From Acidimicrobiia bacterium (GTDB lineage Bacteria; Actinomycetota; Acidimicrobiia; Spongiisociales; ZC4RG35): DNA of 64,000 nt. The stretch covers positions 928,001 through 992,000 of the forward strand of contig CBDBCY010000004.1 of the NCBI GenBank assembly GCA_965203555.1, written 5' to 3'. Of the stretch, positions 43,790 through 64,000 are shown in pieces (the first letter of the stretch is position 1; each line of letters opens with the position of its first letter). The notes under the pieces are model-generated. The model was not told where the DNA came from. It worked only from the letters and a program-made list of their open reading frames with translations, and did not search any database. Position numbers and translations under genes: made by a program.

Positions 43790-45064
43790 TCAGAAGTCGA
43801 TAACCGTGATCTCGTCGATCGGCCAGCGGGTTAGGACTTCGGCGCCGTTTTCGCGGACCACGATCATCTCTTCCACCCGCATACCTGAGTCACCGTCGGG
43901 TTCCTGGGTCTCCACTGCCATAACCATGCCTTCCTGGATCTCGATGGGATGGTCCACTGAGACTCCTCGCCAGATCAGCGGGCGTTCGTACAACTGGAGT
44001 CCCAAGCCGTGCGCCCACTGGTTGGTGGTCATCTGCCAGTAGTGCTGGGCGCCGTACCAGTCCATGTGCTCGCCGTCCCGGTCGGGGAACATCATGGCCA
44101 CCTCGCCGGTGGTCACGCCGGGGCGGATCGCTTCTATGGCGTCGTACAACCAGTCGCGGGCGCGTTGGTAGGCGTCGATGGAGCGTTGTTTGGGCTTGCC
44201 GATGGAGAAGGTCCGGTATACGCACGACCGGTAACCCTGGAACGTGGCGCTGTAGAAGTCGGCGTACATGATGTCTCCGGGGCGGAGCATCCGGTCGGTG
44301 GTGTTGGCCTGGTGCTTGGGCCAGGTGTTCGGGCCGCTGGTGAGATACCCGCCTTCCACCGTGCCTCCCCGGCGCAGGACCGCCTCCACCGCCGCTCCCC
44401 ATATCTCCTGCTCGAGCATCCCCGGCTCGGCGGTCTTCTTGATCGCCATGAACCCGGCCTCACAGATCGCCGAGAGAACCCGAAAACACTCGATCTCGTC
44501 CTTCGTCTTGGTCTGGCGGGCGGTGTGCAGGGCATCCGCCGCTCCTTCTCGGACATCCAGTCCCCGCTCCCGCAACTTGGCCGCCAGAGCCGGTTGAGTG
44601 GCGTCGATGCCGACCGGATCGCGGTGGACGTCATAGTCGTGAGCAGCTTCGACGATCAGATCCGCCATGGTGTTCAGCAGGAACTCCCGGGCCGAGGGCG
44701 AGCCGCTGGCGCGGGGCACGTTTCCCAAACCGGGCGCCGCGTAGCGAATGTCGGGCAGCCAGGGACAGTTGGCCCGCTCGTTGCTGGCGTGATCGGCGGT
44801 GTCCCAGTGCACTATGTCCCCTCCGGCGGTGAGGAAACTGTAGTGGTCGGCGCCGGAGCCGCCCAGCATGGCCAAGCCGGTGACGTACCGAATGTTGGGG
44901 TCGTCCAGCAAGAGCACCGAGCCCAGCCCCGCCTCGGCGATGTAATGCTGAGCCCGGGCTTTGCGCTCGTCGCGCATCCGGGCCATATTGATCCGCTCCT
45001 CCCAGTCCACGGCCATCGTCCCCAAGGTGCCCTCCATGTACGTCGGCTCGTAAAGGCTCATCAT
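43790..45064 (-). CDS. M24 family metallo-hydrolase, non-canonical Cys-type (second copy)
   Basis: VDWEERINMARM, SGPNTWP, ADFY...GYRSCVYRTF, AHGLG, AVETQ, GMRVEEM. Confidence 0.87.
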   Translation of the reverse strand: MMSLYEPTYMEGTLGTMAVDWEERINMARMRDERKARAQHYIAEAGLGSVLLLDDPNIRYVTGLAMLGGSGADHYSFLTAGGDIVHWDTADHASNERANCPWLPDIRYAAPGLGNVPRASGSPSAREFLLNTMADLIVEAAHDYDVHRDPVGIDATQPALAAKLRERGLDVREGAADALHTARQTKTKDEIECFRVLSAICEAGFMAIKKTAEPGMLEQEIWGAAVEAVLRRGGTVEGGYLTSGPNTWPKHQANTTDRMLRPGDIMYADFYSATFQGYRSCVYRTFSIGKPKQRSIDAYQRARDWLYDAIEAIRPGVTTGEVAMMFPDRDGEHMDWYGAQHYWQMTTNQWAHGLGLQLYERPLIWRGVSVDHPIEIQEGMVMAVETQEPDGDSGMRVEEMIVVRENGAEVLTRWPIDEITVIDF

Positions 45065-45092
45065 GCCCCCTTCGTTGCGTAGGTTTCAGATG

Positions 45093-46244
45093 TCATGTTG
45101 ATTGAAGAGACTCCAGTCGGGCTACGATGGCCGCCAGAAAAACGGCGCCCTCCATCCCGTCGAACACCCGGTGGTCTCCCGACAGGGTGAGTCGCACGGT
45201 GGGCGCCGCAGTCAGGCGCCCGTCCACCACGATCGGCCTGGGCTTCACCGCCCCGACCGCCAGGATGCCTGCCTCGGGTGGGTTGACCAGGGCAACGAAC
45301 TCGTCCACGCCCGCCCCTCCCAGATTGGAGACCGTGAACGTACCACCCTGTAGCTGGTCACCTCGCAATCTACCTCTCCGGACCGCGGCTTCGATCCGGC
45401 GACGTTCCGAGGCCATCTCCGCGAGGCTGAGAGCGGCGGCGTTACGGATCACCGGGACGATGAGCCCTTCATCGACCGCCACGGCCAACCCGAGATTGAC
45501 CTGGGAGTGAACTCGAACCGAGGGAGGGTCCTCATCGATCCAACTGGAGTTCACCGCCGGTGTCTGCTCAAGAGCCTGGGCCGTGGCCCAAAGCAGAATG
45601 TCGGTGTAACCGGCCTTCGGTCCCTTGCCGGAGTGTTCGAGCCGTTCCAGAACAACCTCTCGCATCAGTTGAAACTGCGGGACCGCGGCCGACTTGGACA
45701 TCTGCGCGGCAATGGCCCGCCGCATCCTCGACAGCTTCCGGTCTCCTTCCACCGGCGATCGGGCCTGCTCGTGGGCCCGCCCCACGTCATCGGCGGTGAC
45801 CCTCCCGCCGGGTCCCGTGCCTTCCACTTCCGCCAGGTCCACACCCAATTCGGCTGCCCGACGGCGGGCAAGAGGCGACACTGGTTTGCGGCGAGTCCTT
45901 CTCGCCACAGGCCTGGGCGCGCCTTCTCGGACGGCTGAGGCTGCTGGGCGCCCGTGATCGGAAGGATGTGGAACGGTCCGGGAGGGGGCGGAAGGCGGTT
46001 GACCGGCGGGATCGTCCGCGATCCAGGCGATCGGTTCTCCGGTGGCGGCTCTGCCGCCCGGATCCATCAGGACCGCCACGAGGAAACCTCCGGTGGGCGC
46101 CTCGAACGCCACTTCGGCCTTGTCCGTCTCGATAACCGCCAGGACCTCTCCCTCCCTGACCTCATCTCCCACCGACTTGAGCCACTCCACGATCACTCCC
46201 TCCTCCATGTCCTGGCCCAGTCGGGGCATCCTCACCAGCCGCAT
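45093..46244 (-). CDS. Dihydrolipoamide acyltransferase (E2)
   Basis: Lipoyl motif ETDKA, E3-binding SPLARR...GTGPGGR, catalytic DHRVFDG. Confidence 0.93.
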   Translation of the reverse strand: MRLVRMPRLGQDMEEGVIVEWLKSVGDEVREGEVLAVIETDKAEVAFEAPTGGFLVAVLMDPGGRAATGEPIAWIADDPAGQPPSAPSRTVPHPSDHGRPAASAVREGAPRPVARRTRRKPVSPLARRRAAELGVDLAEVEGTGPGGRVTADDVGRAHEQARSPVEGDRKLSRMRRAIAAQMSKSAAVPQFQLMREVVLERLEHSGKGPKAGYTDILLWATAQALEQTPAVNSSWIDEDPPSVRVHSQVNLGLAVAVDEGLIVPVIRNAAALSLAEMASERRRIEAAVRRGRLRGDQLQGGTFTVSNLGGAGVDEFVALVNPPEAGILAVGAVKPRPIVVDGRLTAAPTVRLTLSGDHRVFDGMEGAVFLAAIVARLESLQST

Positions 46245-46277
46245 GGTCTCCGGTCCTTCCGACTCCTTGACATGGCC

Positions 46278-47030
46278 CTAGTGCAGCGTCCAGCCGCCGT
46301 CGGCGGTGACTATCGCTCCGGTGACGAAGCTCGGGTCGTCCGAGGCCAGGAAGGCTATCACCGCCGCGATCTCTTCAGGCTCGCCGTGCCGGCCCATCGG
46401 CGTACCGGCCAGCATCTCCGACCAACTTTCCGGGTCCTCCCGCAGGTCGGCGTTCATTGCGGTGGCGATCACGCCCGGAGACACCGCGTTGACACGGATC
46501 CCGTACGGCGCGGTCTCGAACGCCGCCGAGCGTGTGAGCATGGTTATCGCCCCCTTGGAGGCGGTGTAGGCCACATGTCCACGGCCCGGAAGCACTGCTT
46601 CGATGGAGGCCACGTTCACTATCGCGCCGCCGATCCCGGCCTCGATCATGGATGCGACCACATCCCTGGACAGCAGAAACGGCGCCCTCAAGTTGACGTC
46701 GAACGTCAGATCCCAGGATTCCCGAGAGTGCTCCAGTGTCGCTTCGCGGATCAGGATCGCCGCTGCGTTGACCAGGATGTGAATCTGGTTGTCCCAGTGC
46801 CTGAGCGCCGCTGCCACGACCTTTTCACATGACGATGCGAGGCTCAGATCGGCAGTGAATCCGACATGGCCCGCACCCAGGGTGTCGACCACCTTTGCCA
46901 GACCCTCCTCGTCCCGATCCACGCAGAACAGGTTGGCGCCGTCCGCCGCCAACCTGACGGCGGTGGCTCTCCCGATTCCCGAGGCGACTCCGGTGACGAT
47001 GGCGTTCTTTCCTGAAAGCTTCCCACTCAT
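46278..47030 (-). CDS. SDR family oxidoreductase
   Basis: TGVASGIG, VNAA, YTASK, RVNAVSPG. Confidence 0.92.
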   Translation of the reverse strand: MSGKLSGKNAIVTGVASGIGRATAVRLAADGANLFCVDRDEEGLAKVVDTLGAGHVGFTADLSLASSCEKVVAAALRHWDNQIHILVNAAAILIREATLEHSRESWDLTFDVNLRAPFLLSRDVVASMIEAGIGGAIVNVASIEAVLPGRGHVAYTASKGAITMLTRSAAFETAPYGIRVNAVSPGVIATAMNADLREDPESWSEMLAGTPMGRHGEPEEIAAVIAFLASDDPSFVTGAIVTADGGWTLH

Positions 47031-47779
47031 TGCAGCATGTATCCCCCGTCGGCATACAGGGCTGTGCCGGTCACGAAAGCGGCGTCGTCACTGAGCAGGA
47101 AGAAGACGCAGGCGCCGATGTCCTCCGGCCTCCCCAACCGGCCGATGGGCATGAGTTCGGGGGCCTGTCGGCGGTACACATCTGGGGTCATCTCGGTATC
47201 CACCGAACCGGGGCTGACCGCGTTCACCCTGATTCCCAGCGGCCCCCACTCCAGCGCCAGAACCTTGGTCATGGAGAGGAGGCCTCCCTTCGAGGAGGCG
47301 TAGGGGACCTGGTCCGGATAGGCGATGGTGTCCTCGGCCGAACTGATATTGACGATCGCTCCGGTCAAGCCGTTCCCAACCCAGTGGTTCGCCGCGGCCT
47401 GGCAGAGGAAAAAGGGTGCGGTGAGATTGGTGGCGATCGTCTCGTCGAGGTTGCTCTCGGACTGGGTCCAGAAGGGAGCAAAGAAATTGACTGCCGCATT
47501 GTTGACCAATCCGTCCAGGCGTCCGAAGCTGTCAAGAGCGGCACGGAGCAACCGGGAGGGGGTTTGGGGATCCTTCAGGTCGGCCACTACCACCACCGCC
47601 GCCGAGCCTGCCTGTTCGACCAGTGCCCGGGTGGTCTCCAGGTCCTGGCGGGTGCGGGAGGTGATGACCAGGTTGTATCCCCGCTCGGCCAGCGTGGTCG
47701 CGATTCCCTTTCCGATTCCCCGTCCGGCGCCGGTGAGGATCGCAACCCGCTTTTCTCCTCGATGAACGGTCAACGTCAT
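47027..47779 (-). CDS. SDR family oxidoreductase
   Basis: TGAGRGIG, VNNA, YASSK; ATG 47779 overlaps the upstream stop. Confidence 0.92.
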   Translation of the reverse strand: MTLTVHRGEKRVAILTGAGRGIGKGIATTLAERGYNLVITSRTRQDLETTRALVEQAGSAAVVVVADLKDPQTPSRLLRAALDSFGRLDGLVNNAAVNFFAPFWTQSESNLDETIATNLTAPFFLCQAAANHWVGNGLTGAIVNISSAEDTIAYPDQVPYASSKGGLLSMTKVLALEWGPLGIRVNAVSPGSVDTEMTPDVYRRQAPELMPIGRLGRPEDIGACVFFLLSDDAAFVTGTALYADGGYMLQ

Positions 47780-49131
47780 GCCGCCATCCCCAGTACCGCG
47801 TCCAACGCCGTGGCCGACCGGTCGATGTCGGATTCGGTGTGGCCGTAACCCACCACCCCGGGATGGACCGGCGGCCAGAAGATCCCATGGGCGCACATAC
47901 CCAGCAGTACCGCGCTCAGCAGATCGTGGTCGCCCGCCAGAATCTCCCGGCGGTTGCGAGGCGGCGCCGCGGTGAAATGCAATTGGAATATCGAGCCGAA
48001 TCCGGTGATCTGTCCCATTCCATGCGAATCCAGCACCTCTTGCAGCGTGGACATCAATCTGGCGCCCAGGTAATCGACGTACTCCAGCACCGGTTCCCGG
48101 TCCACAATATCAAAGACCGCCATCCCGGCCGCCAACGACAGGGGATTGCCTGTGAAGGTACCGGAATGGAATATACGGGTCCCCTTGGCGATCGAATCGG
48201 GACCAAGCACCGCCTCCATGATGTCAGCCCGACCACCCAGGGCGGACAGTGGCAGACCTCCCCCGATCGCCTTCCCCAGGCAGGCCAAGTCCGGAGTCAC
48301 TCCCAGATACCCGGGCGCACCGGCGGTTCCCAGGCGCAAGCCCGTCACCACCTCGTCAAAGATCAACACGATCCCATTCTTGCCGGTGACCTCACGAACC
48401 GCCCTTGCGAAGTGGCGATCGGCAGCCACTCCGCCACCGGTTGAGAATGCCACGGGCTCCATCACCACGGCCGCCAGTTCTCCGGCATGTTCGGCAATGA
48501 GGGAGGCCGCGTTCTCCGCGTCGTTGTAGGGGAGCAACAGGACCTCTTCCGCAATCCGGGCCGGGACCCCGGCCGAGTCGAAAACCGGTTGGGGTCGATG
48601 GGGCGGCCCGGCCACCTGCCGAGACCCCGACGAGACCAGGAAATAGTCGTCGGACCCGTGATAATTCCCCTCGAACTTGCCGTAACGCGTCTTGCCGGTG
48701 ACTGCCCGCGCCGCTCGCAGGGCTGTTCGGACGGCCTCCGATCCGGTGTTGGCGAAGCGGACACGTTCCAGATAGGGCATCATTTCCCGCAACCGCTCCG
48801 CGAATCGCTGCTCGATGGGAGTTGGCGCCATCACCGTGGCCAACCGGCCGATCTGCTCCCGTACAGCCGCTATCACCGCGGGATGAGAATGGCCCAGCAG
48901 GGAAGAACCCGCGCCCATCAGGTAGTCGACATAGTCGTTTCCGTCAACGTCTGTCACATGCCCTCCCCGGCCGGAAGCCAGCACCACCGGATAGGGCTCA
49001 TAGAACTTGGCCGCCCCCGAAACGCCCATCGGCAGGACGCCGATGCTCTCTTCCCACAAAGCTCTCGAACCGGGCGTCCGCGCCCGGTAGAGGGCTTCGA
49101 TCTTCCCCCGAAACGGCGCCGGATCCCTCAT
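47776..49131 (-). CDS. Class III aminotransferase, GSA-aminomutase-like (not HemL)
   Basis: DVDGNDYVD, NTGSEA, FEGNYHG, FDEVVTG, LGKAIGGG, SGTFTGNP; lacks the HemL GGVNSPVR motif. Confidence 0.88.
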   Translation of the reverse strand: MRDPAPFRGKIEALYRARTPGSRALWEESIGVLPMGVSGAAKFYEPYPVVLASGRGGHVTDVDGNDYVDYLMGAGSSLLGHSHPAVIAAVREQIGRLATVMAPTPIEQRFAERLREMMPYLERVRFANTGSEAVRTALRAARAVTGKTRYGKFEGNYHGSDDYFLVSSGSRQVAGPPHRPQPVFDSAGVPARIAEEVLLLPYNDAENAASLIAEHAGELAAVVMEPVAFSTGGGVAADRHFARAVREVTGKNGIVLIFDEVVTGLRLGTAGAPGYLGVTPDLACLGKAIGGGLPLSALGGRADIMEAVLGPDSIAKGTRIFHSGTFTGNPLSLAAGMAVFDIVDREPVLEYVDYLGARLMSTLQEVLDSHGMGQITGFGSIFQLHFTAAPPRNRREILAGDHDLLSAVLLGMCAHGIFWPPVHPGVVGYGHTESDIDRSATALDAVLGMAA

Positions 49132-49464
49132 CCTCTGCGCACTCCCCGGACAAACTCGGCAGAAAGGCAACGACCAAGAACCCCCGGCTCGCGAAACCCC
49201 ACCGCTAAGTCGCGAAAACCGATCTTCTTCTCACCCTCAGGGCCCACCCCCGCCACCACCGCCGTCGGATGAAGGGCGCGATCCGGTGAGTGGGCCGGAG
49301 GGCTTCCTCCTGTATGAGTATGACCTCTCTTGGATATGGCGGTCTGAACGACGTCGGAACGGACCGGGAGGTGTTTTCGTGACAATGTCAGTGTGTATCG
49401 AAGGGGTGACGGTAACAACCCTTCGGGGCGTCTTTTTTTCGCGAACCGGTTCCCTGCCCTCATG

Positions 49465-51255
49465 TCAGCCGCCGTCTGCGCCTTCATCCCCGGCGCCGTC
49501 CCCCAGGACCCGGCGGCGGTCGAGGGTCGATTCCCGGTCGAGTGCTCCGTCATCGTCGAGCACCACCCCGTAGTCTTCGAAGGCGCTTCGGGCGGAGACG
49601 TAGCCGTACTCGACGTCGCGGACCACCGCCTCGGGGTCGCGCTCCAACGGATCACCGTATCCACCTCCCCCGGCCGTCTCCTGGCCGACCACCTGGTTGC
49701 GCTCCAAGGGGACCATCGACTTCTTGGCGCCGAACTCCGGGGCCGCCAATCGCTCCTGCGGCGTTCCGGGATCGAGCCGGTACCGGGCGGGCGCCCCGTG
49801 GTGGCCCCCGAACAGACCGTAGGGCGGGACCCGGACCCGGTTTCCTAGCACCGACAACTCCCCGGAAGGCGCAAGCAGCCGGTAATCACGCCTCACCGAC
49901 AAACCGCCCCGCCACTTGCCCGGCCCTCCCGAGTCCTGTCGAAGTTCGTAGCGGTCGATGCGGAGCGGGTACTTCATCTCGATCGCCTCCACGGGCAGGT
50001 TCCAGGTATTGCCCACTATCGAGTAGATGGCGCTCTGGCCGTCGCGGCCCTCGGCGCCGCCCCACCCGCCTTCGGGATACTCGTACAGGACGAAACGCTC
50101 CCCGTCGTCTCCAAAGCCGCTCAGGAACAGATTGTTGGAAGAACCCTGGTCGGCAGCCATCAAACGGACCGGGTTGGGGATGTCCCGGGGAATCTCGCCC
50201 AGAGCTCGATACACCGCGTTGTGGACCACCGACACGATCTCGTTGCCGCCCGTGCAGGCCGCCGGAAACCAGGGGTTGACGATGGTGCCCTCGGGAGCAA
50301 TAATCTCGACCGGGCGGTAACACCCCCCATTCGGAGGGATGGTGGGGTCGGTGCCGGCCTGAATGGTCATGTAGACCCCCGAGGCGGTGTAGCCCAGGAC
50401 ACTGTTCAACGGTCCCTCCACCTGCGGGTCGGTTCCGGTGAAGTCCACCACCACGCCGTCACCCCGCACCTTCACAGTTACCCGGACCGTGCGGGGAACA
50501 TCGGTTATACCGTCGTTATCCATGGAATCCTCGGCGTAGTAGTCACCGTCGGGCCATCCGGCGATGACCGAGCGAATTCGACGTTCCGAGTTGTCCATCT
50601 CTATCGCCATGCACTGTTCAACGGTTTCCAGTCCGTACCGTTCCACCAGTTCGATCAGGCGGCGGCGGGCGGTGAGATTGGCGGAAACCTGGCTCAAGAG
50701 GTCGGACCGCATGTTCTTGGGCAGCCGCACATTGGCCAGGATCATGTTCATGATCTCGTCGTCGATCTCCCCCTCTTTGATCAGCTTCACCGGCGGGATA
50801 CGCAAGCCCTCCTGGTAGTTCTCGCGCGCTTGGGCATAGAAGCTGCCGGGCACCGTGCCACCCACGTCCAGGTGATGGGCTCGGTTGGCGCCCCAGCCGA
50901 TCAACTGTCCCTGATAGAAAATGGGTGTCACCATCGTCACGTCCGGGAGGTGTGAACCACCGCGGAAGGGGTCGTTGAGAATGATCGAATCTCCGGGGCG
51001 GAACCGGTCGACACCTACTTCTTCGATGGAATAGTTCACCGAGTAGGGCAGGGACCCCAAATGGATGGGGAGGAACTCCCCGTGGCTCACCAGCTCGGTC
51101 TGGGCGTTGAAAATGCCGCAGGAATAGTCGTTTCCCTCATTGAAGATGGTGGAACTGGAGGTCTGGCGCATGGTGATGCCCATTTCCCGGGCGCCCGCGG
51201 CCAAGCCGCTGGTAACCACCTCGACGGTGACCGGATCAACCTGGTGGCGGGTCAC
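49465..51255 (-). CDS. Hydantoinase B / oxoprolinase family subunit
   Basis: DPVTVEV, DYSCG, NDPFRGGSHLPD, HHLDVGG, DSGGPGKWRGG, GGGGYGDP. Confidence 0.93.
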   Translation of the reverse strand: MTRHQVDPVTVEVVTSGLAAGAREMGITMRQTSSSTIFNEGNDYSCGIFNAQTELVSHGEFLPIHLGSLPYSVNYSIEEVGVDRFRPGDSIILNDPFRGGSHLPDVTMVTPIFYQGQLIGWGANRAHHLDVGGTVPGSFYAQARENYQEGLRIPPVKLIKEGEIDDEIMNMILANVRLPKNMRSDLLSQVSANLTARRRLIELVERYGLETVEQCMAIEMDNSERRIRSVIAGWPDGDYYAEDSMDNDGITDVPRTVRVTVKVRGDGVVVDFTGTDPQVEGPLNSVLGYTASGVYMTIQAGTDPTIPPNGGCYRPVEIIAPEGTIVNPWFPAACTGGNEIVSVVHNAVYRALGEIPRDIPNPVRLMAADQGSSNNLFLSGFGDDGERFVLYEYPEGGWGGAEGRDGQSAIYSIVGNTWNLPVEAIEMKYPLRIDRYELRQDSGGPGKWRGGLSVRRDYRLLAPSGELSVLGNRVRVPPYGLFGGHHGAPARYRLDPGTPQERLAAPEFGAKKSMVPLERNQVVGQETAGGGGYGDPLERDPEAVVRDVEYGYVSARSAFEDYGVVLDDDGALDRESTLDRRRVLGDGAGDEGADGG

Positions 51256-53282: not shown

Positions 53283-54274
53283 GCCGAGTACTCCACAAGG
53301 CCGAGACACTCCCGCACCCGCTGGGCGATAAGCCGTTCGTCGCAGATCATGACGGTTTCCAACTCCCGGGCGAACGGAATGGGAGTCGCCCTGCTCCCTG
53401 CCCGCAGCGGAGGCGCGTCCAGTTCATCAAACCCCTCCGCCACCACCCGGCTGATCAACTCCCCGGCCCAGCCTCCCCTCTCCACCGCTTCGTGGGCCAC
53501 GACCAGTTGATGGGTCCGCGACACAGACTCCAACACCAGGTCGACATCCATGGGAACCAGGGTGCGCAGGTCGATGACCTCGACCGATATCCCCTCCTCC
53601 TCCAGCTGCCGGGCAGCCACCAGCGCCTGATGGACCGACTTGCCGATAGCCGCCACCGTTATATCCTCCCCCCAACGTCTGACCACGCCCCGCCCAAGCG
53701 GTATCGGCGCCACGGGATCGGAGACCATCCCCTTGGTTCTGTACAAGGCCCGGTGCTCGATGAAGAGGACCGGATGGTCCAGAGCCACCGCGGTCTTGAA
53801 GAGCCCCTTCACGTCGTGGGGCACGGACGGCATCACCACCGCCAGGCCCGGAACGTGCAGGAACCAGCTTTCCAGGGTCTGAGAGTGCTGGGACCCGTGA
53901 TGGGTGCCGGAGCCCCCCTGGGTCCGGATCACCATCGGCGCCCGCAACTGGTCACCCGACATGTATCGCATCTTGGCGGCGTGATTGACGATGGCATCCA
54001 TCCCGCAGGCGATGAAGTCCATGAACATCACCTCCACGATGGGGCGCATCCCCATCACCGCCGCACCCACCCCCGCCCCCAGCATGGACTGCTCGGCGAT
54101 GGGCATGTCGCGAACCCGGTGGGCGCCGAATCTCTCCGCAAGGCCCTGCGTGGCGCGGAACACACCGCCGTATTCTCCGATCTCCTGGCCCATGATGAAA
54201 ACCCGGTCGTCGGCGGCCATGGCCTCCGCCTGCGCCTGGAGTACCGCCTCGATGAAGGTGATCTCCGCGGTCAC
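53279..54274 (-). CDS. 2-oxoacid/acetoin dehydrogenase E1 beta
   Basis: YGGVFRAT, DMPIAE, EVMFMDF, QHSQ, VIDLRTL. Confidence 0.93.
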   Translation of the reverse strand: MTAEITFIEAVLQAQAEAMAADDRVFIMGQEIGEYGGVFRATQGLAERFGAHRVRDMPIAEQSMLGAGVGAAVMGMRPIVEVMFMDFIACGMDAIVNHAAKMRYMSGDQLRAPMVIRTQGGSGTHHGSQHSQTLESWFLHVPGLAVVMPSVPHDVKGLFKTAVALDHPVLFIEHRALYRTKGMVSDPVAPIPLGRGVVRRWGEDITVAAIGKSVHQALVAARQLEEEGISVEVIDLRTLVPMDVDLVLESVSRTHQLVVAHEAVERGGWAGELISRVVAEGFDELDAPPLRAGSRATPIPFARELETVMICDERLIAQRVRECLGLVEYSA

Positions 54275-55383: not shown

Positions 55384-55386
55384 ATT

Positions 55387-56643: not shown

Positions 56644-57999
56644 TCAACTCTCCTTGATGGTCTCGAGCACGGCTTGGCAGACGTCCAGTACCTCGTCGAT
56701 CTCCGAGTCGCTCTGGGACGCGTTGGTAAAGCCCAGGTGATAGGGGGTGATATACACCCCATGGGCTACCAGGCCTAGATAGAAGGTCCCCGCCATCTCC
56801 CGGTCGCTTGCTAACACGTCGCGGATGCTGCGCACCGGTTCATCGGCAAAGTACACGCCGAAAATGGGTCCCTGCCCGGTGGCCTGGACGGGCAGACCCA
56901 GGTTGGCGCCCATCTTCTCTATCCCCTCGCGCACCCGGTCGCCAGTGTCGTTCAGCTTCTCGTACATGCCGGGCTTCTCCAGTTCCGACAGCATCGCCAT
57001 GCCGGCTGCCAACGACACCAGGTTGGTCTGGAAGGTCCCCGATTGGAAAATGGTAACCCGCTCATCGTCGGCGTCGCGGCGGGGAGTGACGACCTGTTCC
57101 ATGACGTCGCGCCGGCCTCCGAAGGCGCCCATGGGAAATCCGCCCCCGATAGTCTTGGCAAGCGCCACCAGGTCAGGGGTGACGCCCGTCACCGCGGTGC
57201 TGCCGCCCAGGGCGACCCTGAAACCGGTGATCACCTCGTCGAAGATCAGAAGAATTCCGTGGCGGGCGGTGACCTCCCGCAGGGCCTCCAAAAACCCCTG
57301 TTCGGCCACGATCCCGGCCAGCCACGTCCCTCCCACCGCCTCCACCACCACCCCGGCCAACTCGGAGGCGTGCTCGGAGATAAGCGCCACCGTGGCGTCG
57401 GTGTTGTTGAACGGCAGGACCACCGTGTCGTCCAGGACGCCCTGGGGAATGCCGGCCCCCTCGGGTAGCGCCAGCGGGCGTTCCTCGGGTCCCCCGTAGG
57501 AGGTCCCACTGATCAGCAGATTGTCGTAGCCTCCGTGGAAATTGCCTTCGAACTTTCCGATCTTCCGTCTGCCTGTGAAGGCGCGGGCCACCCGCATCGA
57601 CATGTGGACCGCCTCGGAACCGGTGTGGACGAAGCGAATCATCTCCATGTGAGGCATGTGCTTTCGAATAAGATCAGCCATGGCCAGGTTGTTGGGAGAC
57701 GGCGCGATCGTGCTGGTGCCCCTGGAGAGTTGCTTGGCGACGGCATTCATCACCGGGGGCGGCGAATGGCCCAGAATGTGGGGCCCGCCGCCGATAAGGG
57801 AATCGATGTACCGGTTGCCGTCGACATCCCACAGAAACGGCCCGCCGGCCCGTTCCACGTACAACGGGTAAGGGGGGCGGAAGCCGGCGTTGCCCGGAAC
57901 CCCGCCCGGCAAATGGTTTCTGGCCTCCTCGTAGAGTCGCAGGGACTCTGGCGTGCGTTGGGTGTAAAGGTCCACGAATCTCTTTCGGGCGTCTGTCAT
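56644..57999 (-). CDS. Class III aminotransferase, GSA-aminomutase-like (second copy, not HemL)
   Basis: DVDGNRYID, TGSEA, FEGNFHG, FDEVITGFR, LAKTIGGG, QSGTF. Confidence 0.88.
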   Translation of the reverse strand: MTDARKRFVDLYTQRTPESLRLYEEARNHLPGGVPGNAGFRPPYPLYVERAGGPFLWDVDGNRYIDSLIGGGPHILGHSPPPVMNAVAKQLSRGTSTIAPSPNNLAMADLIRKHMPHMEMIRFVHTGSEAVHMSMRVARAFTGRRKIGKFEGNFHGGYDNLLISGTSYGGPEERPLALPEGAGIPQGVLDDTVVLPFNNTDATVALISEHASELAGVVVEAVGGTWLAGIVAEQGFLEALREVTARHGILLIFDEVITGFRVALGGSTAVTGVTPDLVALAKTIGGGFPMGAFGGRRDVMEQVVTPRRDADDERVTIFQSGTFQTNLVSLAAGMAMLSELEKPGMYEKLNDTGDRVREGIEKMGANLGLPVQATGQGPIFGVYFADEPVRSIRDVLASDREMAGTFYLGLVAHGVYITPYHLGFTNASQSDSEIDEVLDVCQAVLETIKES

Positions 58000-59843
58000 G
58001 ATTGCTGCTCTCCTGTGTCAGATCGGGCGGCGCGCAGTTCGGCGCGCAAACTTTCGGTTGCATCGACATCTATCCGGTAGTCGAGAAGGTCGGCGTCCCG
58101 CACTTCGATCGCCACCCCGTAGTCGTTGCGGGCGGACTCGAGCGATATGTACCGGTCCATTACATCTTCCAGCACGGCCCCGGGATCCCGCTCCAGGGGA
58201 TCGCCGTACCCCCCGCCTCCCGAAGAGACGTGATAGAAGGTGCCGTGCCGGCCGACGAACTCGTCGGCGAAGTAGATGGGAAGGTCCTCCTCCCGGTCGG
58301 TACCAAGATTCTTGGCCACCCGGATGGGGATCCCGTCCTTCCCGCCGAACAGCCCGCGTGGACCGCCGGGGCCGTCCTCTCCCCGATCGGCGATGTAGGA
58401 GAGCCGCACGCCGCCGGCGTTCTCCGCTCGCAGCACCGACTCCAGTCCCGCCCCTCCCCTCCACTTTCCCGCTCCCATCGAGTCGGTGACCGGCGCCAGA
58501 CGGTCAAAGGTGACCGGCCACATCCTCTCGATCACCTCGCTCGACTGGTTGAGGATTCCCAGCCCGAAGATGGCGGCGCCGCAGTCCCGCCCGTCCGCGC
58601 CGTACTTGCCGCCCCAGCCGCCGGTGTGCCAGTGGTAGTAGACGAAGTAATTGTTGTGCCGGCCGGGACGGTCGTCCACCCCGCCGGCCACCACGTATTC
58701 CAGGTTGAAGTTGCCGGCAAAGGACCGCTGTGGCGCGACCTGCGCCCAAACCCTTTGCACGCAGGCCGTGGTCTTCTCATACGCTCCCGACACCTCCCCG
58801 CACACTGCGTAGGGACGGACCGCGTTGACCACGCTCGTCTCGGGAAAGACCGCCTTGATGATGCGCAGCCACCCCGCATTCATGAGAGGCTTGGGAAAGA
58901 TGTACTTGGTGCCGGCCACCAGGGCGCCGGTGGTCGACCCGCGGGTGCCGTTCATGCCCGATTGCACCGGCGGTCCCGACCCCGTCATGTCATAGATGAC
59001 CCTCGGAGGATCGTGCTGGATGGTCATCTTGAGAGAGACCTTCACCGGGCCATCCTCGGGCGCCTGGGGATCGTAGTCGATGTAGTCATCGGTCTCCCAT
59101 GTCCCCTCGGGGCACCGGAGGATCTCGGCGGCCAACTCCCGCTCGGAGTGGTCCAGGGTGCCCTTCATGGACCCCACGACGGTCTCCAGCCCGTACTTTG
59201 CTATCAGGGTGTGGAGCCGGGCCTCCCCCACCCGGGCGGCCTCGATGTGAGCGATCAGATCACCCGTGGAGTTGACGGGGATGCGGATGTTGGCCATGAT
59301 CAGGTTCTTCACGTCATGGCGCATCACCCCCCGTGAGACCACCTTGAGCGGAGGAATCACCAGACCCTCGGCATAGATGTCCGCCGCCAGGGCGTTCATG
59401 GAGCCCGGAGTGGCGCCGCCCACATCCGACCAGTGGCCCTTGGTTGCCGTGAATGCGATCAGCTCGTCCTGCCAGAAGATCGGGCTGATGAAGGTCATGT
59501 CGGGCAGGTGGGTTCCTCCCCGGTAGGGCTCGTTGAAGGCAAAGACGTCCCCTTCCTCCAAGCCTTCCTCCACGTCGACGAAGTCCTCGATCACCGACTG
59601 TGTGCTGGGTTGCAGGGCCCCGACATGGACCGCCACATCCCGGGTTCCCTGGGCGACCAGTTCCCCCCGGGCGTTCATCAGGCCGCCGCTGACATCCCCG
59701 CAGTAGATCACAAACGACAGACAGGAATCCCGAAGTGCCTCCACCATCTCGTCAACCAGGCTCACGAATGCGCTGGAGAGAATCGAGAAAGTCACCGGAT
59801 CGACCTGGTGAACCGGATCCGGCCGGGGCTGGTCGCCGCTCAT
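57996..59843 (-). CDS. Hydantoinase B / oxoprolinase family subunit (second copy)
   Basis: DPVTFSI, NEPYRGGTHLPD, GHWSDVGG, GAGKWRGG, GGGGYGDP; ATG 59843 overlaps the upstream stop. Confidence 0.92.
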   Translation of the reverse strand: MSGDQPRPDPVHQVDPVTFSILSSAFVSLVDEMVEALRDSCLSFVIYCGDVSGGLMNARGELVAQGTRDVAVHVGALQPSTQSVIEDFVDVEEGLEEGDVFAFNEPYRGGTHLPDMTFISPIFWQDELIAFTATKGHWSDVGGATPGSMNALAADIYAEGLVIPPLKVVSRGVMRHDVKNLIMANIRIPVNSTGDLIAHIEAARVGEARLHTLIAKYGLETVVGSMKGTLDHSERELAAEILRCPEGTWETDDYIDYDPQAPEDGPVKVSLKMTIQHDPPRVIYDMTGSGPPVQSGMNGTRGSTTGALVAGTKYIFPKPLMNAGWLRIIKAVFPETSVVNAVRPYAVCGEVSGAYEKTTACVQRVWAQVAPQRSFAGNFNLEYVVAGGVDDRPGRHNNYFVYYHWHTGGWGGKYGADGRDCGAAIFGLGILNQSSEVIERMWPVTFDRLAPVTDSMGAGKWRGGAGLESVLRAENAGGVRLSYIADRGEDGPGGPRGLFGGKDGIPIRVAKNLGTDREEDLPIYFADEFVGRHGTFYHVSSGGGGYGDPLERDPGAVLEDVMDRYISLESARNDYGVAIEVRDADLLDYRIDVDATESLRAELRAARSDTGEQQS

Positions 59844-61901
59844 TCTCCACCTCCGGCCCCGGTGGTGTCCACCACCAGATTGAGAAAGCGATCGACCGTC
59901 ATCGTCATCCCGGGCGGCACCAGAGTGGTCGAGTCCATCTGCTCGACCACCGCCGGACCCACCGTCCGGAAACCGACCGGCAGGGAGGGCCGCGACCACA
60001 CCGGGGTGTCCACCCATCCTCCGGCCTCCCGCCAGTGGACGGGACGCCGGTCCGGGGCGGCGGGCACGGTCGAAGTAGCTTCGACAGCACCCGGCCGGTA
60101 TTTGTCGGAAATTCCCGTGCCCGTCACCGCGATTCCGTGGATCTCGACTTCCCGTTCACCCAGGTCGAAGGTGAACCTCTTCAAATACAGACTCTTGAAC
60201 AGCTCCACGATATCCAACAGGCTCTGGGGGGTCATCCTGCCTGTCACCGGGATGGCGAACACCCTCCACTGCCCGGCGTAGCACATGTCGATGGTCCACT
60301 CCACGGACTGGCGCTCGGGCGGAATGCCCTCCCGGTCAAGGGCGGCCCGTACCCGGGCATCGAATTCCTCGAATTGATCATTCATCTCGTCGATGTCGAC
60401 CGCCGCCGCCTCCCCGTAGAACATGCTGGCGCCCAGGTCATGACGGATGTCGGCCATGAGACAACCCAGTGCCGAGGTGAGCCCCGGCCGGGGAGGCACC
60501 AACACGGTGGGAATGCTCATCTCGGCCGCCACCCGGGCGCCGTGGAACGGTCCGGCTCCGCCGAATGCCACCAAGGCGAAGTCGCGGGGATCCAGGCCTC
60601 GCCTCATGGTCGCCAACCTTATGGCATTGGCCATGTTCGCCTCCGCGACCGCCACAACCGCCGCCGCCGCGGAGACCGTGTCGCTGCCGAGCATGCGACC
60701 GATCCGGTCGCGGATCACCTTCTCGGCCAGCGCCGGGACGATCTCCATCGCCCCGCCCAGCATGGCGCCGGGCCGGAGGTTCCCCAGCACCACGTGCGCA
60801 TCGGTGTTGGTGGGCCGGTCGCCTCCCCTTCCGTAGCAGGCCGGGCCGGGGACCGCCCCCATACTGTGCGGTCCCGACCGGAGCTTTCCTCCCGGGTCGA
60901 ACCACGCCACCGATCCTCCCCCCGCCCCCACGGTGATAATGTCCACCGCCGGGAACATGATCGGATGGCCCCACTCCACCTCCCAGGTCTCGGTGGTCCT
61001 CAACCGGCCGTCCAGAGTCACCGAGACATCGGTGCTGGTTCCCTCCGATGTCAAGCCCGATTATGTTCTCAAAGCCCGCCAGTGCGCCTATCTCCCGGGC
61101 CGCTATCGCGCCCGCCGAAGGACCGGAATTGGCGGTCCGGACCGGGATGTTGGAGGTGGCCTCCACCCCCATCAGGCCTCCTGCCGACTGGACGATCAGC
61201 ACATCGCCCTGGTAGTCCCGGTCCCGCAGACCCTGCTCCAGGGCTTTCAGGTAATCGATCATCACCGGGATGAGCGCCACGTTGAGGATGGTGGTGGTGA
61301 ATCGCTCGTACTCGAGAATGCGGGGGATGGTCTCATGGGACGTGCGGACCAGCGCCTCCGGGTATTCCTCCAGGATGATCTCTTTCATTCTCCGCTCGTT
61401 GCGCCCGTTGGTGTAGGAGTGGAGGAAGCACACCGCGATGGTCCGGATGCCCCGACCCCGCAGGATCCGGGCCACGGCGCGCGCCTCCTCTTCGTCGAGG
61501 GGGGTACGGACCTGCCCGGAACTGAGGGTTCGCTCGGTGACTTCCAGGCGGTCGCGGGGCTTGACGATGGAGGGAAGGGGAGACTCGTGGTAGATGTCCC
61601 AGATGTCCTCCTTCGAGCCCCGGGCAGCCTGGGTCAGCACGGCGGTGACTCCCCTGGTGGTCACCATCCCCACCCGCGGCAGGCGCCTCTCTATCAAGGC
61701 GTTGGTCCCCAGGGTCGTCCCGTGAGCAAAGGAGCGGAACCTCTCTCCGCCGACTCCCGCCTCGTCCATGGCGTTGAACACCCCGGCGAAGCCATCCCGG
61801 GTGGTCGGTGTCTTGACGACCCGTACCTCTCCGTCGGGGTCCACCATCACCCAGTCGGTGAAGGTTCCTCCGATGTCTACCCCGATCCTGAACTCAGTCA
61901 T
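59840..61901 (-). pseudogene. Hydantoinase A / oxoprolinase subunit (second copy) with a +1 frameshift near 61040-61045
   Basis: The N-half (DIGGTFTD...SGPSAG...LDIGG) and C-half (TSTDVS...GAGGGS...PGPACYG) are in different frames. Removing one base from GGAGGGAACC restores DIGGTSTDV. Confidence 0.85.
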
Positions 61902-62605
61902 CAGATCCCCAGGTAGGCGCGTCGCACCAGATCACTTTCGAGCACGGCTCGGGTCTCGCCGCTCTCCACCACCGAGCCCGACTCCATCACATAGGCTTTC
62001 TTGGCGATCTCCAGCGCCAGAAAGGCGTTCTGTTCCACCAGCAGCACCGTCAGGCCCTGCTCGTTGAGGTCGAGGATGATTTCCGCCAAGTGGTCGACGA
62101 TGATGGGGGCCAGTCCTGCCGACGGCTCATCCAGCAGCAGCAGGCTGGGATTACCCATCAATGCCCTGGCGATGGCCAGCATCTGTTGCTCCCCGCCGCT
62201 GAGCGTGCCGGCTCGTTGACGCGCCCGCTCGGAAAGCCGCGGGAAGAAATCGAACGCCCTGGCGAGCCGATGCTGGTATTCGTCCTGCTCCTTGACCAGG
62301 TGGGCGCCCATTTCCAGGTTCTCTAGAACCGTCATGGCCGGGAAGAGTTCTTTGCCCTGCGGCACGTGACCCAGCCCCATTCCGACTATCTCGTGGGGTC
62401 TGAGGTTGTCGATTCGGTCCCCGTCGAAGGTGATCTCTCCCCCCATGGGTCGGAGCACCCCCGAGACGGTGAGGAGCAGGGTGGTCTTGCCTGCCCCGTT
62501 GGCGCCGATCACGGTCACCAGTTCGCCTTGGCCGACGCTGATCGAGACGTCGAACAGCACCTGCACCCGCCCGTAGGCCACATTCAAAGAACTGATTTCA
62601 AGCAC
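61901..62605 (-). CDS. livF: Branched-chain-type ABC ATPase LivF-like
   Basis: GANGAGKTT, LSGGEQQMLAIARAL, DEPSAGLAP, VEQNA. Confidence 0.9.
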   Translation of the reverse strand: MLEISSLNVAYGRVQVLFDVSISVGQGELVTVIGANGAGKTTLLLTVSGVLRPMGGEITFDGDRIDNLRPHEIVGMGLGHVPQGKELFPAMTVLENLEMGAHLVKEQDEYQHRLARAFDFFPRLSERARQRAGTLSGGEQQMLAIARALMGNPSLLLLDEPSAGLAPIIVDHLAEIILDLNEQGLTVLLVEQNAFLALEIAKKAYVMESGSVVESGETRAVLESDLVRRAYLGI

Positions 62606-63365
62606 CGCGACGCTTCCCCAGATAGGCGGTCACCACATCTTCGTCGCCAACTATCTCTTCGGGAGTGCCCTCTGCGATCTTGGCCCCGAAGTTGAGCACC
62701 GTAATCCTGGTGCAAATGTTGGTTATCAGACGCATGTTGTGCTCGACCAGCAACACCGTGACGCCCTTGTCTCGCAAGGTTCTGATCAGGTCCATCAGAA
62801 ACCCCGCTTCCTCGGGGTTCAACCCGGTGGCAGGCTCATCGAGCAGGAGCATCCGGGGTTTGGCGGCCAGCGCGATGGCGATCTCCAGGTACCGGTGTTC
62901 GCCGGCGGACAGGTCTCGAGCCACCGCCTCGATGCGTCCGTCCAGACCCACCGCCGCCAGTAGTTCCCGGACCCGCTCCTCCAGCACCGCACACTGCTTC
63001 CGGTATCTGCGGGACCGGGTCAGAGCTCCCAAAAGAGTGGTGGGATTGTTGAGATGGCGGCCGTGGAGAACATTGTCCCGAACCGTCAAGTTCTCGAACA
63101 AGGTGGTGATCTGGAATGTGCGGACCAGTCCCATCCGAGCCAGGTCGTGAGGCTGGGCGCCGGTGATGTTCTCTCCCTGATAGGTCACCACTCCCCCGGT
63201 GGGCTTGATAAAGCCCGTAATGAGATTCAGGGCGGTGGTCTTCCCGGAGCCGTTCGGGCCGATCAGACCCCGGATCTCCCCTTCCTCCACGGACAAATCC
63301 AACTCGTCGACCGCCGACAGGCCGCCGAACATTCTGGTGAGCCCGGTGGTCTCGAGGATCGGCAT
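62598..63365 (-). CDS. livG: Branched-chain-type ABC ATPase LivG-like
   Basis: FGGLSAV, GPNGSGKTT, RTFQ, DEPATGLNP, VEHNM, AYLG. Confidence 0.9.
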   Translation of the reverse strand: MPILETTGLTRMFGGLSAVDELDLSVEEGEIRGLIGPNGSGKTTALNLITGFIKPTGGVVTYQGENITGAQPHDLARMGLVRTFQITTLFENLTVRDNVLHGRHLNNPTTLLGALTRSRRYRKQCAVLEERVRELLAAVGLDGRIEAVARDLSAGEHRYLEIAIALAAKPRMLLLDEPATGLNPEEAGFLMDLIRTLRDKGVTVLLVEHNMRLITNICTRITVLNFGAKIAEGTPEEIVGDEDVVTAYLGKRRGA

Positions 63366-63368
63366 TCG

Positions 63369-64000
63369 CTACTCCACCCCCACCCCGTCCACGGCATGAT
63401 CTTCGCCGGCTACCGTGACCTCTTCTCCCGATTCCTCGCGTTTCCTCCGCCGCCGAAATGCTTTCTGGAGAGCGGGAAAGACCCCGATCGGCATGAAAAG
63501 CACCACCAGGAGCAACACCACACCGAAAATCACGAAACGATACTCCTGTAGGGCCCGGAGCCACTCACTCACCAGGACGAAAATCGCCGCACCGAAAACC
63601 GGACCCCACAGGGTCCCCGTCCCTCCCACCAGAACAACGATCAAGAAGATGAACATGTATTGGAGGCCCAACAGATTCGGGTTGACAAACCGGAAATGGT
63701 GAGCGTACAGGGCGCCGGAGAACCCCACCAGCGCGCAGGCGAACGAGAACGCCAGGACGTAATATCTGGTGGCCGCCACACCGATGGACTTGGCGAGGTC
63801 TTCGTTCTCGTGAATGCTGCGCACCGCCCTGCCGAAGCGGGACTCCCGCATCCTGGACAGGATGAAGACCACTCCCAGCAGCAACAACAGGGCGAAGTAG
63901 AAATAGGCCAACTCCGACCGTATTTCCCAGCCGAACAGACTGGGCGGGGGGACCTGGCGCAATCCCGACGGGCCGCCGGTGACCGGCCGCCACCGCAGGG
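63369..64000 (-). CDS. livM: Branched-chain-type ABC permease LivM-like (5' end outside the window)
   Basis: TGGPSG, SRFGRAVRSIHENE, GGTGTLWGPVFGA, PIG. Confidence 0.85.
   Translation of the reverse strand, partial: LRWRPVTGGPSGLRQVPPPSLFGWEIRSELAYFYFALLLLLGVVFILSRMRESRFGRAVRSIHENEDLAKSIGVAATRYYVLAFSFACALVGFSGALYAHHFRFVNPNLLGLQYMFIFLIVVLVGGTGTLWGPVFGAAIFVLVSEWLRALQEYRFVIFGVVLLLVVLFMPIGVFPALQKAFRRRRKREESGEEVTVAGEDHAVDGVGVE

Follow-up and report, generated by a model that had tools for sequence, protein, structure and literature searches.

ATP-dependent lactamases form a large family, few members of which have a known substrate (5-oxoproline, N-methylhydantoin, caprolactam and 5-substituted hydantoins). 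Ectoine degradation employs a different ring-opening enzyme, the M24 hydrolase DoeA, together with the class III aminotransferase DoeD. The caprolactam route of Pseudomonas jessenii GO3 comprises the CapAB caprolactamase, an omega-aminotransferase, a 6-oxohexanoate dehydrogenase, a family III CoA-transferase and beta-oxidation (PMC6061476; PMC8453981). Sponge-microbiome papers count HyuA and HyuB genes as the N-methylhydantoinase of creatinine catabolism and regard creatinase as a symbiont trait (PMC6742649). The locus described here lies at one end of a 64,000-nucleotide stretch of DNA (the window; positions 928,001 to 992,000 of contig CBDBCY010000004.1, GenBank assembly GCA_965203555.1) from an Acidimicrobiia bacterium. 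It encodes two HyuA-HyuB pairs (HyuA1-HyuB1 and HyuA2-HyuB2), each accompanied by a class III aminotransferase (AT1 and AT2), along with a family III CoA-transferase, the E1 alpha, E1 beta and E2 subunits of a putative thiamine pyrophosphate (TPP)/lipoyl complex, two short-chain dehydrogenases (SDR1 and SDR2) and an M24 hydrolase. We consider it moderately probable that the locus is a catabolic operon under IclR control, that its substrates are small and probably neutral cyclic amides which enter via a Liv/HAAT-type importer, and that it arose by the merger of two units.

A conserved, co-oriented operon

An earlier note on this DNA had listed a co-oriented, mostly translationally coupled run of genes from livM to the M24 hydrolase gene. 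Open reading frame (ORF) listing together with Pfam and NCBIfam scans bears out that order, with all genes on the minus strand. Adjacent genes mostly overlap by 1-8 nt or lie 3-42 nt apart; only HyuB1 and AT1 are separated by a longer spacer, of ~295 nt. The operon spans ~24 kb and has a single regulator and a single importer for the whole run. The Liv binding protein that had been expected just beyond position 64000 is encoded there as a Peripla_BP_6 gene, which follows livH, an IclR regulator gene and a gap of ~900 nt (Table 1).

The gene set is conserved as one co-oriented unit among close relatives. Each of the four relatives inspected (G033, G008, G003 and G009) has the full set in the same order, from the binding protein gene through to M24, with protein identities of 66-98%, and the gene for a CitE/RipC-like lyase comes next. 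With HyuA1 as the query, an orthologue of 85-93% identity is found in 15 of 16 genomes of the same genus and in G033, which is filed in another family of the order. The same query found no orthologue in G005, a genome that is 94% complete, and the other 23 relatives gave matches at the level of paralogues (at most 46% identity) or none; this tally includes an unpublished genome (G027) that bears on none of the conclusions. Fourteen genomes carry a second, uninterrupted HyuA gene on the same contig, 8.5-8.7 kb from the HyuA1 orthologue.

An AT1-alignment scan of the genomes of 185,579 species, from which 80 loci were kept, extends this picture. Twenty loci have an AT1 of at least 77% identity and belong, by record title, to Acidimicrobiia or unclassified metagenome-assembled genomes (MAGs), two of them titled Candidatus Spongiisocius. 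E2, both SDRs and M24 are present in all 20, HyuB1 in 19, HyuA1 and E1 beta in 18, E1 alpha, the CoA-transferase and AT2 in 17, and HyuB2 in 16; the gene-poor loci are all among four short ones limited by contig ends. Of all the proteins in the cluster, M24 is the best conserved, with 91-96% identity among relatives. Runs labelled as sponge or coral metagenomes contain near-identical pieces of DNA (for example, a 521-base piece with 13 differences in X2 and a 436-base piece with 8 in X4). The source actinobacterium is marine and probably sponge-associated.

Two units with different histories

More distant AT1-type loci, at 48-62% identity (n = 27), occur in Solirubrobacterales MAGs, Conexibacter, Kribbella sancticallisti, Sphaerisporangium rufum, other Actinomycetota MAGs and one gammaproteobacterial MAG. 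A HyuA1/HyuB1-type gene is linked to AT1 in 22 of the 27, and three of the five misses are on contigs of at most 7.3 kb. None of the 33 loci whose aminotransferase shares less than 48% identity with AT1 has HyuAB. The AT1-HyuAB linkage is specific to the AT1 clade. In Kribbella, Sphaerisporangium and two MAGs, a divergent IclR gene is followed by the order AT-HyuA-HyuB-E1a-E1b-E2-SDR-SDR-alpha/beta hydrolase, and one Solirubrobacteraceae locus reads AT-HyuA-HyuB-E1a-E1b-M24-SDR-SDR. Many Solirubrobacterales loci end right after HyuB; the four extended ones all continue with E1a-E1b-(E2 or M24)-SDR-SDR. Because these single-module operons of other lineages, a gammaproteobacterial MAG among them, carry them, the E1 alpha/beta pair with its E2, the SDR pair and the hydrolase belong with the first lactamase module. 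This departs from the earlier proposal that two modules feed one dedicated 2-oxoacid dehydrogenase: the E1/E2 genes and the SDR pair are part of unit 1, and unit 2 has a CoA-transferase of its own.

Unit 2 has a narrower distribution. HyuB2, AT2 and the CoA-transferase, sought at 60% identity or more, are found in none of the 27 more distant AT1-type loci, and the set HyuA2-HyuB2-AT2-CoA-transferase is linked to AT1 only in close Acidimicrobiia relatives (AT1 at least 77% identical). Among 300 sampled Actinomycetota, the nearest HyuB2 relatives come from only three genomes, at 43-44% identity. In another actinobacterium, the HyuAB pair that includes a distant relative of HyuB2 (42% identity) is directly preceded by a gene for a family III CoA-transferase. 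The triplet of HyuA, HyuB and class III aminotransferase does occur twice in clearly diverged form, as the earlier note had it, with identities of 35-39% between HyuA1 and HyuA2, 35% between HyuB1 and HyuB2 and 42% between AT1 and AT2. Other HyuA paralogues of the genome are 37-44% identical to HyuA1; HyuA2 is no nearer to HyuA1 than these are, so the second triplet did not arise by recent duplication of the first. Two units with different histories, rather than one, have merged in this cluster. The note had also supposed a substrate with two cyclic amide nitrogens. As worded this is not supported, since unit 2 looks separate, and it survives in part within the single module, which has a second hydrolase; the alternative that it offered, two related lactams, fits better with the restricted linkage of unit 2 to AT1.

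The core operon (unit 1) is rare, as well as phylogenetically scattered and compact: a HyuB1-type gene (E-value of 1e-190 or better) was not found in 400 other sampled Actinomycetota, with three candidates per genome scored. The record titles of two carriers of the core, Kribbella sancticallisti JCM 14969 and Sphaerisporangium rufum NBRC 109079, include culture-collection strain numbers, which makes the function of the core directly testable. The importer is of the HAAT type in the Acidimicrobiia version, of the CUT2 sugar type in Kribbella and of the Opp/Dpp type in Solirubrobacterales, a variety that fits a small, polar, neutral molecule. In several Actinomycetota (L041, L042, L043, L048, L049 and L051), the single-module operon comes with a gene for an F420-dependent luciferase-like oxidoreductase of the TIGR03619 family (47-87% identity between loci); this gene is absent from the Acidimicrobiia version.

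HyuAB pairs of the lactamase type

Both HyuAB pairs resemble ATP-dependent lactamases. HyuA1 scores 429 bits against N-methylhydantoinase (PDB 7hk5), 396 bits against caprolactamase (6yra_A) and 254-274 bits against acetophenone and acetone carboxylases. HyuB1 scores 282 bits against N-methylhydantoinase (7hk5), 280 bits against caprolactamase (6yra) and 155 and 93 bits against the carboxylases, the lactamase bit scores being ~1.5 to 3 times those of the carboxylases. CapA and CapB are the best NCBIfam models for all four subunits, at a quarter to half of the cut-off, and the carboxylase models ApcC (275 of 1500) and ApcD (159 of 1500) reach about half of the CapA/CapB scores. Hydant_A_N, Hydantoinase_A and Hydant_A_C domains and a paired Hydantoinase_B are found in both pairs, those of HyuA2 being spread over two frames.

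The residues expected of such enzymes are also kept. Work on caprolactamase gives the ATP motifs of the ASKHA fold as DxGGTxTD, DxGGT and GxxPGP, and the metal site of CapB as D41, H99, D102 and H124 (PMC8453981). Read by eye from the translations, the corresponding motifs are VDIGGTFTD, LDMGGT and SDPGP in HyuA1, and VDIGGTFTD, LDIGGT (cut before its final T by an extra base in the assembly) and AVPGP in HyuA2. Alignment to 6yra_B places D43, H102, D105 and H127 of HyuB1 on the four CapB ligands, and the same residues are present in HyuB2. Scores nearer to lactamases than to carboxylases, together with these motifs, support at the level of sequence the earlier assignment of both pairs to the ATP-dependent, cyclic-amide-opening type rather than the carboxylase type. 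The genome has seven HyuAB loci, and only the two pairs of this operon adjoin a GSA-type aminotransferase. Another of its HyuAB loci (G000:C4:498681-505925) consists of one HyuA followed by three tandem HyuB paralogues that are 27-32% identical to HyuB1 and HyuB2.

HyuA2 is present in the run, as had been reported, and is read in two frames in the assembly, a point missing from the earlier note. An extra single base at ~61039-61044 splits the gene inside the DxGGT phosphate-2 motif, and the match to the Hydantoinase_A profile breaks off at profile position 88 in one ORF and continues from that position in the next. None of the four inspected relatives has the extra base, and the corresponding HyuA gene is without a stop in 14 related genomes. 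All five public contigs that bridge the site likewise lack it (two from X1 and one each from X2, X4 and X5); these derive from all four public runs used, in three studies, at depths of 2.3-8.6, and are assembled contigs, not raw reads. One X1 contig shows no other difference across 106 bases at the site. Since the relatives and all bridging contigs are without the extra base, the frameshift is probably an assembly error.

Enzymes predicted to act on the opened ring

Matches to models and structures bear out that both aminotransferases are of the GSA type. The best structures for AT1 are GSAM (275 bits), 6k8h (243 bits), D-phenylglycine aminotransferase (212 bits) and a beta-transaminase (198 bits). 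Neither protein reaches the HemL cut-offs (398 for NF000818 and 527.3 for TIGR00713), AT2 scoring 388.8 and 367.8 bits and AT1 345 and 323.6 bits. Three more GSA-like genes are found elsewhere in the genome. The best structures for the CoA-transferase are formyl-CoA transferase and SUGCT (succinate-hydroxymethylglutarate type), both at ~276 bits, followed by YfdE at 255 bits.

The E1 and E2 subunits are related to those of pyruvate dehydrogenase (PDH). E1 alpha scores 318.2 bits against the PDH_E1_alph_y model (cut-off 393.85), with human PDH E1 alpha as its best structure (187 bits), and E2 scores 242.3 bits against a PDH equivalog cut-off of 445. E1 beta is above the cut-off of the subfamily model NF006667 (326.6 vs 321 bits). 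The E3 component would be supplied from outside the cluster, where one gene (G000:C4:2424770-2426128; 449.5 bits) exceeds the TIGR01350 cut-off. The genome contains six E1 alpha/beta pairs vs three E2-like genes. A paralogous E1 alpha/beta pair, 46-47% identical to that of the cluster, is encoded without E2 at L107 7360-10426 (G000:C4:626360-629426); its neighbours are an SDR gene and a xylose-isomerase-like TIM-barrel gene, amid tryptophan-biosynthesis genes.

Every version of the operon that was seen to its end encodes a further hydrolase, which is M24 or an alpha/beta hydrolase. M24 aligns weakly over its full length with structures of DddP (best 74 bits) and of prolidases (65-69 bits), and a search of the ESM Atlas with it yielded only generic clusters of M24 family metallopeptidases. 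In an alignment to 1pv9, the metal ligands of which we take to be D209, D220, H284, E313 and E327, it keeps four of the five pita-bread ligands, the second Asp being a Cys. This Cys (motif S-C-[VY]-Y-R-T) is kept in three orthologues (L013, L040 and L043) and in a 33%-identical paralogue in the window (22465-23703), and a more distant M24 protein (L046) has Asp at that position. The alpha/beta hydrolase (300 residues, 56-92% identical across lineages) is encoded after SDR2 in seven loci; among protein families it matches a UilS-type lactonase best, though only in part. M24 takes its role in other loci, and one locus has both. The constancy of a second hydrolase keeps hydantoin- or diketopiperazine-type substrates possible.

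Genomic setting

The coordinates of the operon and of its flanking features are collected in Table 1. The binding protein matches only distant Leu/Ile/Val-type and uncharacterised binding proteins among solved structures (at most 64 bits), which gives no hint of the ligand. The spacer that separates HyuB1 from AT1 may serve as an internal promoter or regulatory stretch and varies among relatives: it measures 300-380 nt in G003 and G009, and the genes abut in G008. Rfam returned no match at gathering thresholds anywhere in the window, spacer included. Terminator-like sites are not in excess (10 vs 10.1 in shuffled sequences), and the seven promoter-like sites (3.2 +/- 1.4 in shuffles), five of them on the non-coding plus strand, offer nothing usable. 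Downstream of M24 lie a PIN-domain gene, the convergent CitE/RipC-like lyase gene and a phosphotriesterase-family gene. The lyase gene adjoins the operon in 16 of the 20 closely related loci and possibly provides the end of the CoA-transferase branch. The PIN-domain (VapC-like) gene, at 42917-43339 between M24 and the CitE-like gene, was detected in six of these 20 loci and appears as two pieces in G008.

Table 1. Positions of the operon genes and flanking features. Entries given as L001 lie beyond the window and convert as window position = L001 position + 62000.
Feature	Position	Strand	Evidence and remarks
Peripla_BP_6 binding protein, Liv-type	L001 5012-6283		~900-nt gap between IclR gene and this gene
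IclR regulator	L001 3312-4112		Upstream of livH, beyond the window
livH	L001 2393-3439		Upstream of livM, beyond the window
livM-type ABC permease, C-terminal part	63369..64000	-	PF02653, 95.9 bits; gene runs past the window end
livG-type ABC ATPase	62598..63365	-	PF00005 and PF12399; LivG model 245 bits, below cut-off 362
livF-type ABC ATPase	61901..62605	-	PF00005; LivF model 259 bits, below cut-off 441
HyuA2, ATP-binding (ASKHA) subunit, ATP-dependent lactamase pair 2	59840..61901	-	Two frames in the assembly
HyuB2, metal-site subunit, lactamase pair 2	57996..59846	-	PF02538, 447 bits; longest ORF extends to 60017, likely start Met at 59846
AT2, GSA-type class III aminotransferase	56644..57999	-	PF00202; GSAM subfamily model 388.8 bits, below cut-off 398
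Family III CoA-transferase	55387..56601	-	PF02515, 439.7 bits
E1 alpha (TPP) of heterodimeric E1	54271..55383	-	PF00676, 249 bits
E1 beta	53279..54274	-	PF02779 and PF02780
HyuA1, ATP-binding subunit, lactamase pair 1	51252..53309	-	Three Hyu_A domains
HyuB1, metal-site subunit, lactamase pair 1	49465..51255	-	PF02538, 602.7 bits
Non-coding spacer HyuB1/AT1	49171..49464	-	~295 nt, lower GC
AT1, GSA-type class III aminotransferase	47776..49170	-	PF00202, 226 bits; likely start 49125
SDR1, classical short-chain dehydrogenase	47027..47896	-	PF13561/PF00106; likely start ~47779
SDR2, classical short-chain dehydrogenase	46278..47030	-	PF13561/PF00106; BudC model 206 bits, below cut-off 270
E2 dihydrolipoyl acyltransferase	45093..46244	-	Lipoyl (PF00364), E3-binding (PF02817) and catalytic (PF00198) domains
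M24 'pita-bread' hydrolase	43790..45064	-	PF00557; N-terminal creatinase/prolidase-type domain
CitE/RipC-like acyl-CoA C-C lyase, convergent neighbour	41607..42611	+	PF03328; RipC/Ccl model 194 bits, below cut-off 375

The surroundings contain further features of note. A second catabolic island on the minus strand, at 26600-42100, encodes an Opp-type ABC importer (binding protein, two permeases and a fused ATPase), an amidase, a GntR regulator, two phosphotriesterase-family (lactonase-like) proteins, a beta-eliminating lyase/threonine-aldolase-like protein, an S15 X-Pro dipeptidyl peptidase and two proteins of 420 and 467 residues without a Pfam family. Outside the window, at L001 9681-11759 (~window 71681-73759), a gene for a 692-residue protein adjoins a BCCT transporter gene and another OpuAC protein gene. 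This protein combines a glycine-betaine-type binding domain (OpuAC), an SBP_bac_3/ligand-gated-channel binding domain and an Ion_trans_2/Lig_chan potassium-channel-like pore; its domains suggest a bacterial channel of the glutamate-receptor-like kind that carries an additional osmolyte-binding domain. At the start of the window, on opposite strands, are two genes of the DUF222 family (2-1090 and 3114-4352), whose members often accompany HNH endonuclease domains.

Proposed route and alternatives

We infer the reactions, their order and the substrates of both units from family membership. A small, probably uncharged ring amide would enter via the HAAT-type ABC importer. Unit 1, the old core, comprises AT1, HyuA1B1, E1 alpha/beta, E2, the two SDRs and M24. 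HyuA1B1 would spend ATP to open a lactam or ureide ring whose unaided hydrolysis would be unfavourable, and the second hydrolase (M24 here, the alpha/beta hydrolase in other lineages) may cut a further amide or ester bond. AT1 would then take off the freed primary amine to leave a carbonyl compound, the two SDRs may oxidize one or more hydroxyl groups, and the TPP-dependent E1, the lipoyl-bearing E2 and the E3 encoded elsewhere would convert a 2-oxo acid (or an acyloin or dione) into an acyl-CoA. Unit 2, the add-on of HyuA2B2, AT2 and the family III CoA-transferase, would form a parallel, caprolactam-like branch that leads from a lactam through an omega-amino acid, an oxo acid and a dicarboxylate to a CoA ester, and the CitE/RipC-like lyase may finish it. 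The sequence did not point to any one of the precise substrates considered, which were valerolactam or pyrrolidone, 6-oxopipecolate, lysine or ornithine lactams, hydroxylated lactams, hydantoins, dihydropyrimidines, diketopiperazines and ectoine-like rings.

Several points weigh against this scheme. E1 alpha and E2 stay below the PDH equivalog cut-offs and no subunit reaches any NCBIfam equivalog cut-off; against CapA and CapB (NF050156/NF050157, cut-off 1000) the scores are 536.7 for HyuA1, 327.2 for HyuB1, 178.4 and 261.3 for the two parts of HyuA2 and 244.8 for HyuB2. Lactamases and carboxylases share a fold and a metal site, and similarity scores are no proof of hydrolysis. HyuA2 is frameshifted within the assembly itself, and the importer type differs between lineages, as could the substrate. 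E2 is missing from the M24-type single-module clusters. Because of this absence, and of the paralogous E1 alpha/beta pair without E2, the E1 may work otherwise than as a classical 2-oxoacid dehydrogenase. How the aminotransferase connects to E1 is chemically unexplained, in that a transaminated omega-amino acid gives an aldehyde or ketone, not the usual 2-oxo acid; no aldehyde dehydrogenase (Aldedh domain) was found in the cluster or its flanks, and one distant variant (L043) has one. Two ways out suggest themselves. The ring may free an alpha-amino acid, as a 5-oxoproline-, hydantoin- or diketopiperazine-type ring would, which the constant second hydrolase favours. Alternatively, E1 may cleave an acyloin or dione made by the aminotransferase and SDRs, an option that gains some weight from the same absence of E2 from M24-type clusters and from the paralogous pair.

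The first way out leads to a specific version of the preferred scheme that we consider rather unlikely as stated. A two-amide ring (a 5-substituted hydantoin, glycocyamidine, dihydropyrimidine or cyclic dipeptide) would be opened by HyuAB, M24 or the alpha/beta hydrolase would cut the resulting N-carbamoyl or dipeptide intermediate to an alpha-amino acid, possibly a D- or non-proteinogenic one, and the GSA-type aminotransferase would deliver a 2-oxo acid to E1/E2. The E1/E2 step would then be chemically natural, an aminotransferase followed by E1 alpha/beta and E2 being the logic of branched-chain amino-acid catabolism. The second hydrolase in every operon version seen to its end agrees with such a route, as do the four conserved metal ligands of M24 and its resemblance to prolidases and DddP, the D-phenylglycine aminotransferase among the AT1 relatives (212 bits), the Opp/Dpp-type peptide importer of the Solirubrobacterales version and the position of N-methylhydantoinase as best structural relative of HyuA1 and HyuB1. 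It is weakened by the absence from the scanned clusters of any recognised carbamoylase (nitrilase-type or M20 family) and of a hydantoin racemase, and by the two SDRs, for which it has no role; ordinary amino acids, moreover, would need no dedicated aminotransferase and E1/E2. We know of no description of ATP-dependent diketopiperazine opening by HyuAB enzymes. Should HyuAB instead act as a ketone carboxylase like those of acetone and acetophenone, the aminotransferases and SDRs would make a ketone from an amine or an alcohol, HyuAB would turn it into a beta-keto acid and the CoA-transferase would activate the product. The combination of an SDR, a carboxylase and CoA activation is the logic of ethylbenzene/acetophenone degradation, and transaminases of this class make ketones from amines. 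According to work on caprolactamase, the fold and the Asp-His-Asp-His metal site are common to the carboxylases, and caprolactamase itself needs bicarbonate (PMC8453981). The similarity scores run the other way (254-274 vs 396-429 bits for HyuA1 and 93-155 vs 280-282 bits for HyuB1, with ApcC/ApcD at about half of CapA/CapB), there is no conserved ORF for a small gamma subunit, the HyuB1-AT1 gap being variable and absent in G008, and E1/E2 would have no role; this makes carboxylation improbable.

To read the run as no single pathway, with an importer, lactamase cassette 2 and lactamase cassette 1 with its E1/E2 genes co-oriented by chance, would accommodate the different histories of the two units, the ~295-nt spacer that splits the run between HyuB1 and AT1 and the varying importer type. 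We give such a juxtaposition little credence, as the full order, including importer and regulator, is kept in the four inspected relatives at 66-98% protein identity and in full-length AT1 loci, only one regulator and one importer serve the whole run, and most junctions overlap by 1-8 nt. Hardly credible is degradation of creatinine or creatine, the customary reading of HyuA/HyuB with M24 in sponge microbiomes. Usage in that literature favours it (PMC6742649), as do N-methylhydantoinase as best-scoring structure and a weak Creatinase_N match of M24 (E-value 0.00078; 20.4 bits, below the cut-off of 22). The gene content already contradicts it: the cluster has no creatininase, cytosine/creatinine deaminase, N-carbamoylsarcosine amidase or sarcosine oxidase domain, and the aminotransferases, E1/E2, SDRs and CoA-transferase have no place in the pathway. 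No creatinase is among the 20 PDB chains that M24 matches at an E-value of 1e-8 or better, and the core operon also occurs outside Acidimicrobiia, including in Kribbella and Sphaerisporangium. At least two of the seven HyuAB loci of the genome sit in a context that cannot be creatinine degradation.

Returning to the preferred reading, in which a catabolic operon for ring amides has merged from two units, a bolder form of it is possible, if on balance doubtful. The core would be an undescribed, self-contained route that takes a widespread natural ring amide with one more hydrolysable bond to an acyl-CoA, with TPP/lipoyl cleavage replacing the aldehyde-dehydrogenase step of caprolactam catabolism. 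Hydroxylated lactams, ureides of the hydantoin or glycocyamidine type and diketopiperazines would be examples of such a substrate. Marine, probably sponge-associated Acidimicrobiia would have welded on a second lactamase branch to harvest host- or community-derived ring amides. If this were true, much of the 'N-methylhydantoinase/creatinine degradation' signal of sponge microbiomes would represent other lactam substrates. The core operon would couple ring opening to a TPP/lipoyl complex, and knowledge of its substrate would reveal a further catabolic route for lactams or ureides and sharpen the reading of symbiont metabolism.

Comparison with known systems

The closest described counterpart of unit 2 is the caprolactam route, with which it has in common a HyuA/HyuB-type lactamase that keeps the ATP motifs and metal tetrad, a class III aminotransferase and a family III CoA-transferase. 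It differs in that the CapA and CapB scores are far below the cut-off (537 and 327 of 1000), the aminotransferases are of the GSA type and not the Vibrio fluvialis omega type, and there is neither a semialdehyde (6-oxohexanoate-type) dehydrogenase nor a set of beta-oxidation genes; unit 1 has E1 alpha/beta, E2 and two SDRs instead. N-methylhydantoinase (PDB 7hk5 and related structures), the best-scoring solved relative of HyuA1 and HyuB1, shows the same two-part architecture, but is a single fused chain of 1288 residues, and the other genes of the creatinine pathway are absent here. The acetone and acetophenone carboxylases (PDB 5m45, 5svb and 5l9w) have homologous subunits with the same metal site; their similarity is much weaker, and this locus has no gamma subunit gene.

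Beyond the lactamases, the locus shares with ectoine degradation the pairing of an M24 hydrolase with a class III aminotransferase within a single catabolic cluster for a nitrogen-containing ring. M24, however, scores 35-47 bits on ectoine-hydrolase models with cut-offs of 575-613, and there are no equivalents of doeB or doeC. As in the PDH, BCKDH and AcoABCL complexes, a TPP-dependent E1 alpha and an E1 beta are accompanied by an E2 with lipoyl, E3-binding and catalytic domains, with E3 coming from elsewhere in the genome; the association with SDRs recalls the acetoin/2,3-butanediol systems. In contrast to those complexes, E1 alpha and E2 fall below the PDH cut-offs, the complex is embedded in a lactamase operon and E2 is dispensable in some versions. 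The earlier note knew of no described pathway with this gene set, and the literature searched yielded no paper that describes it, as judged mostly from search listings. The general theme, an orphan ATP-dependent lactamase operon, is a recurrent one; of particular interest here are the coupling to a TPP/lipoyl complex and a history of a core plus an add-on.

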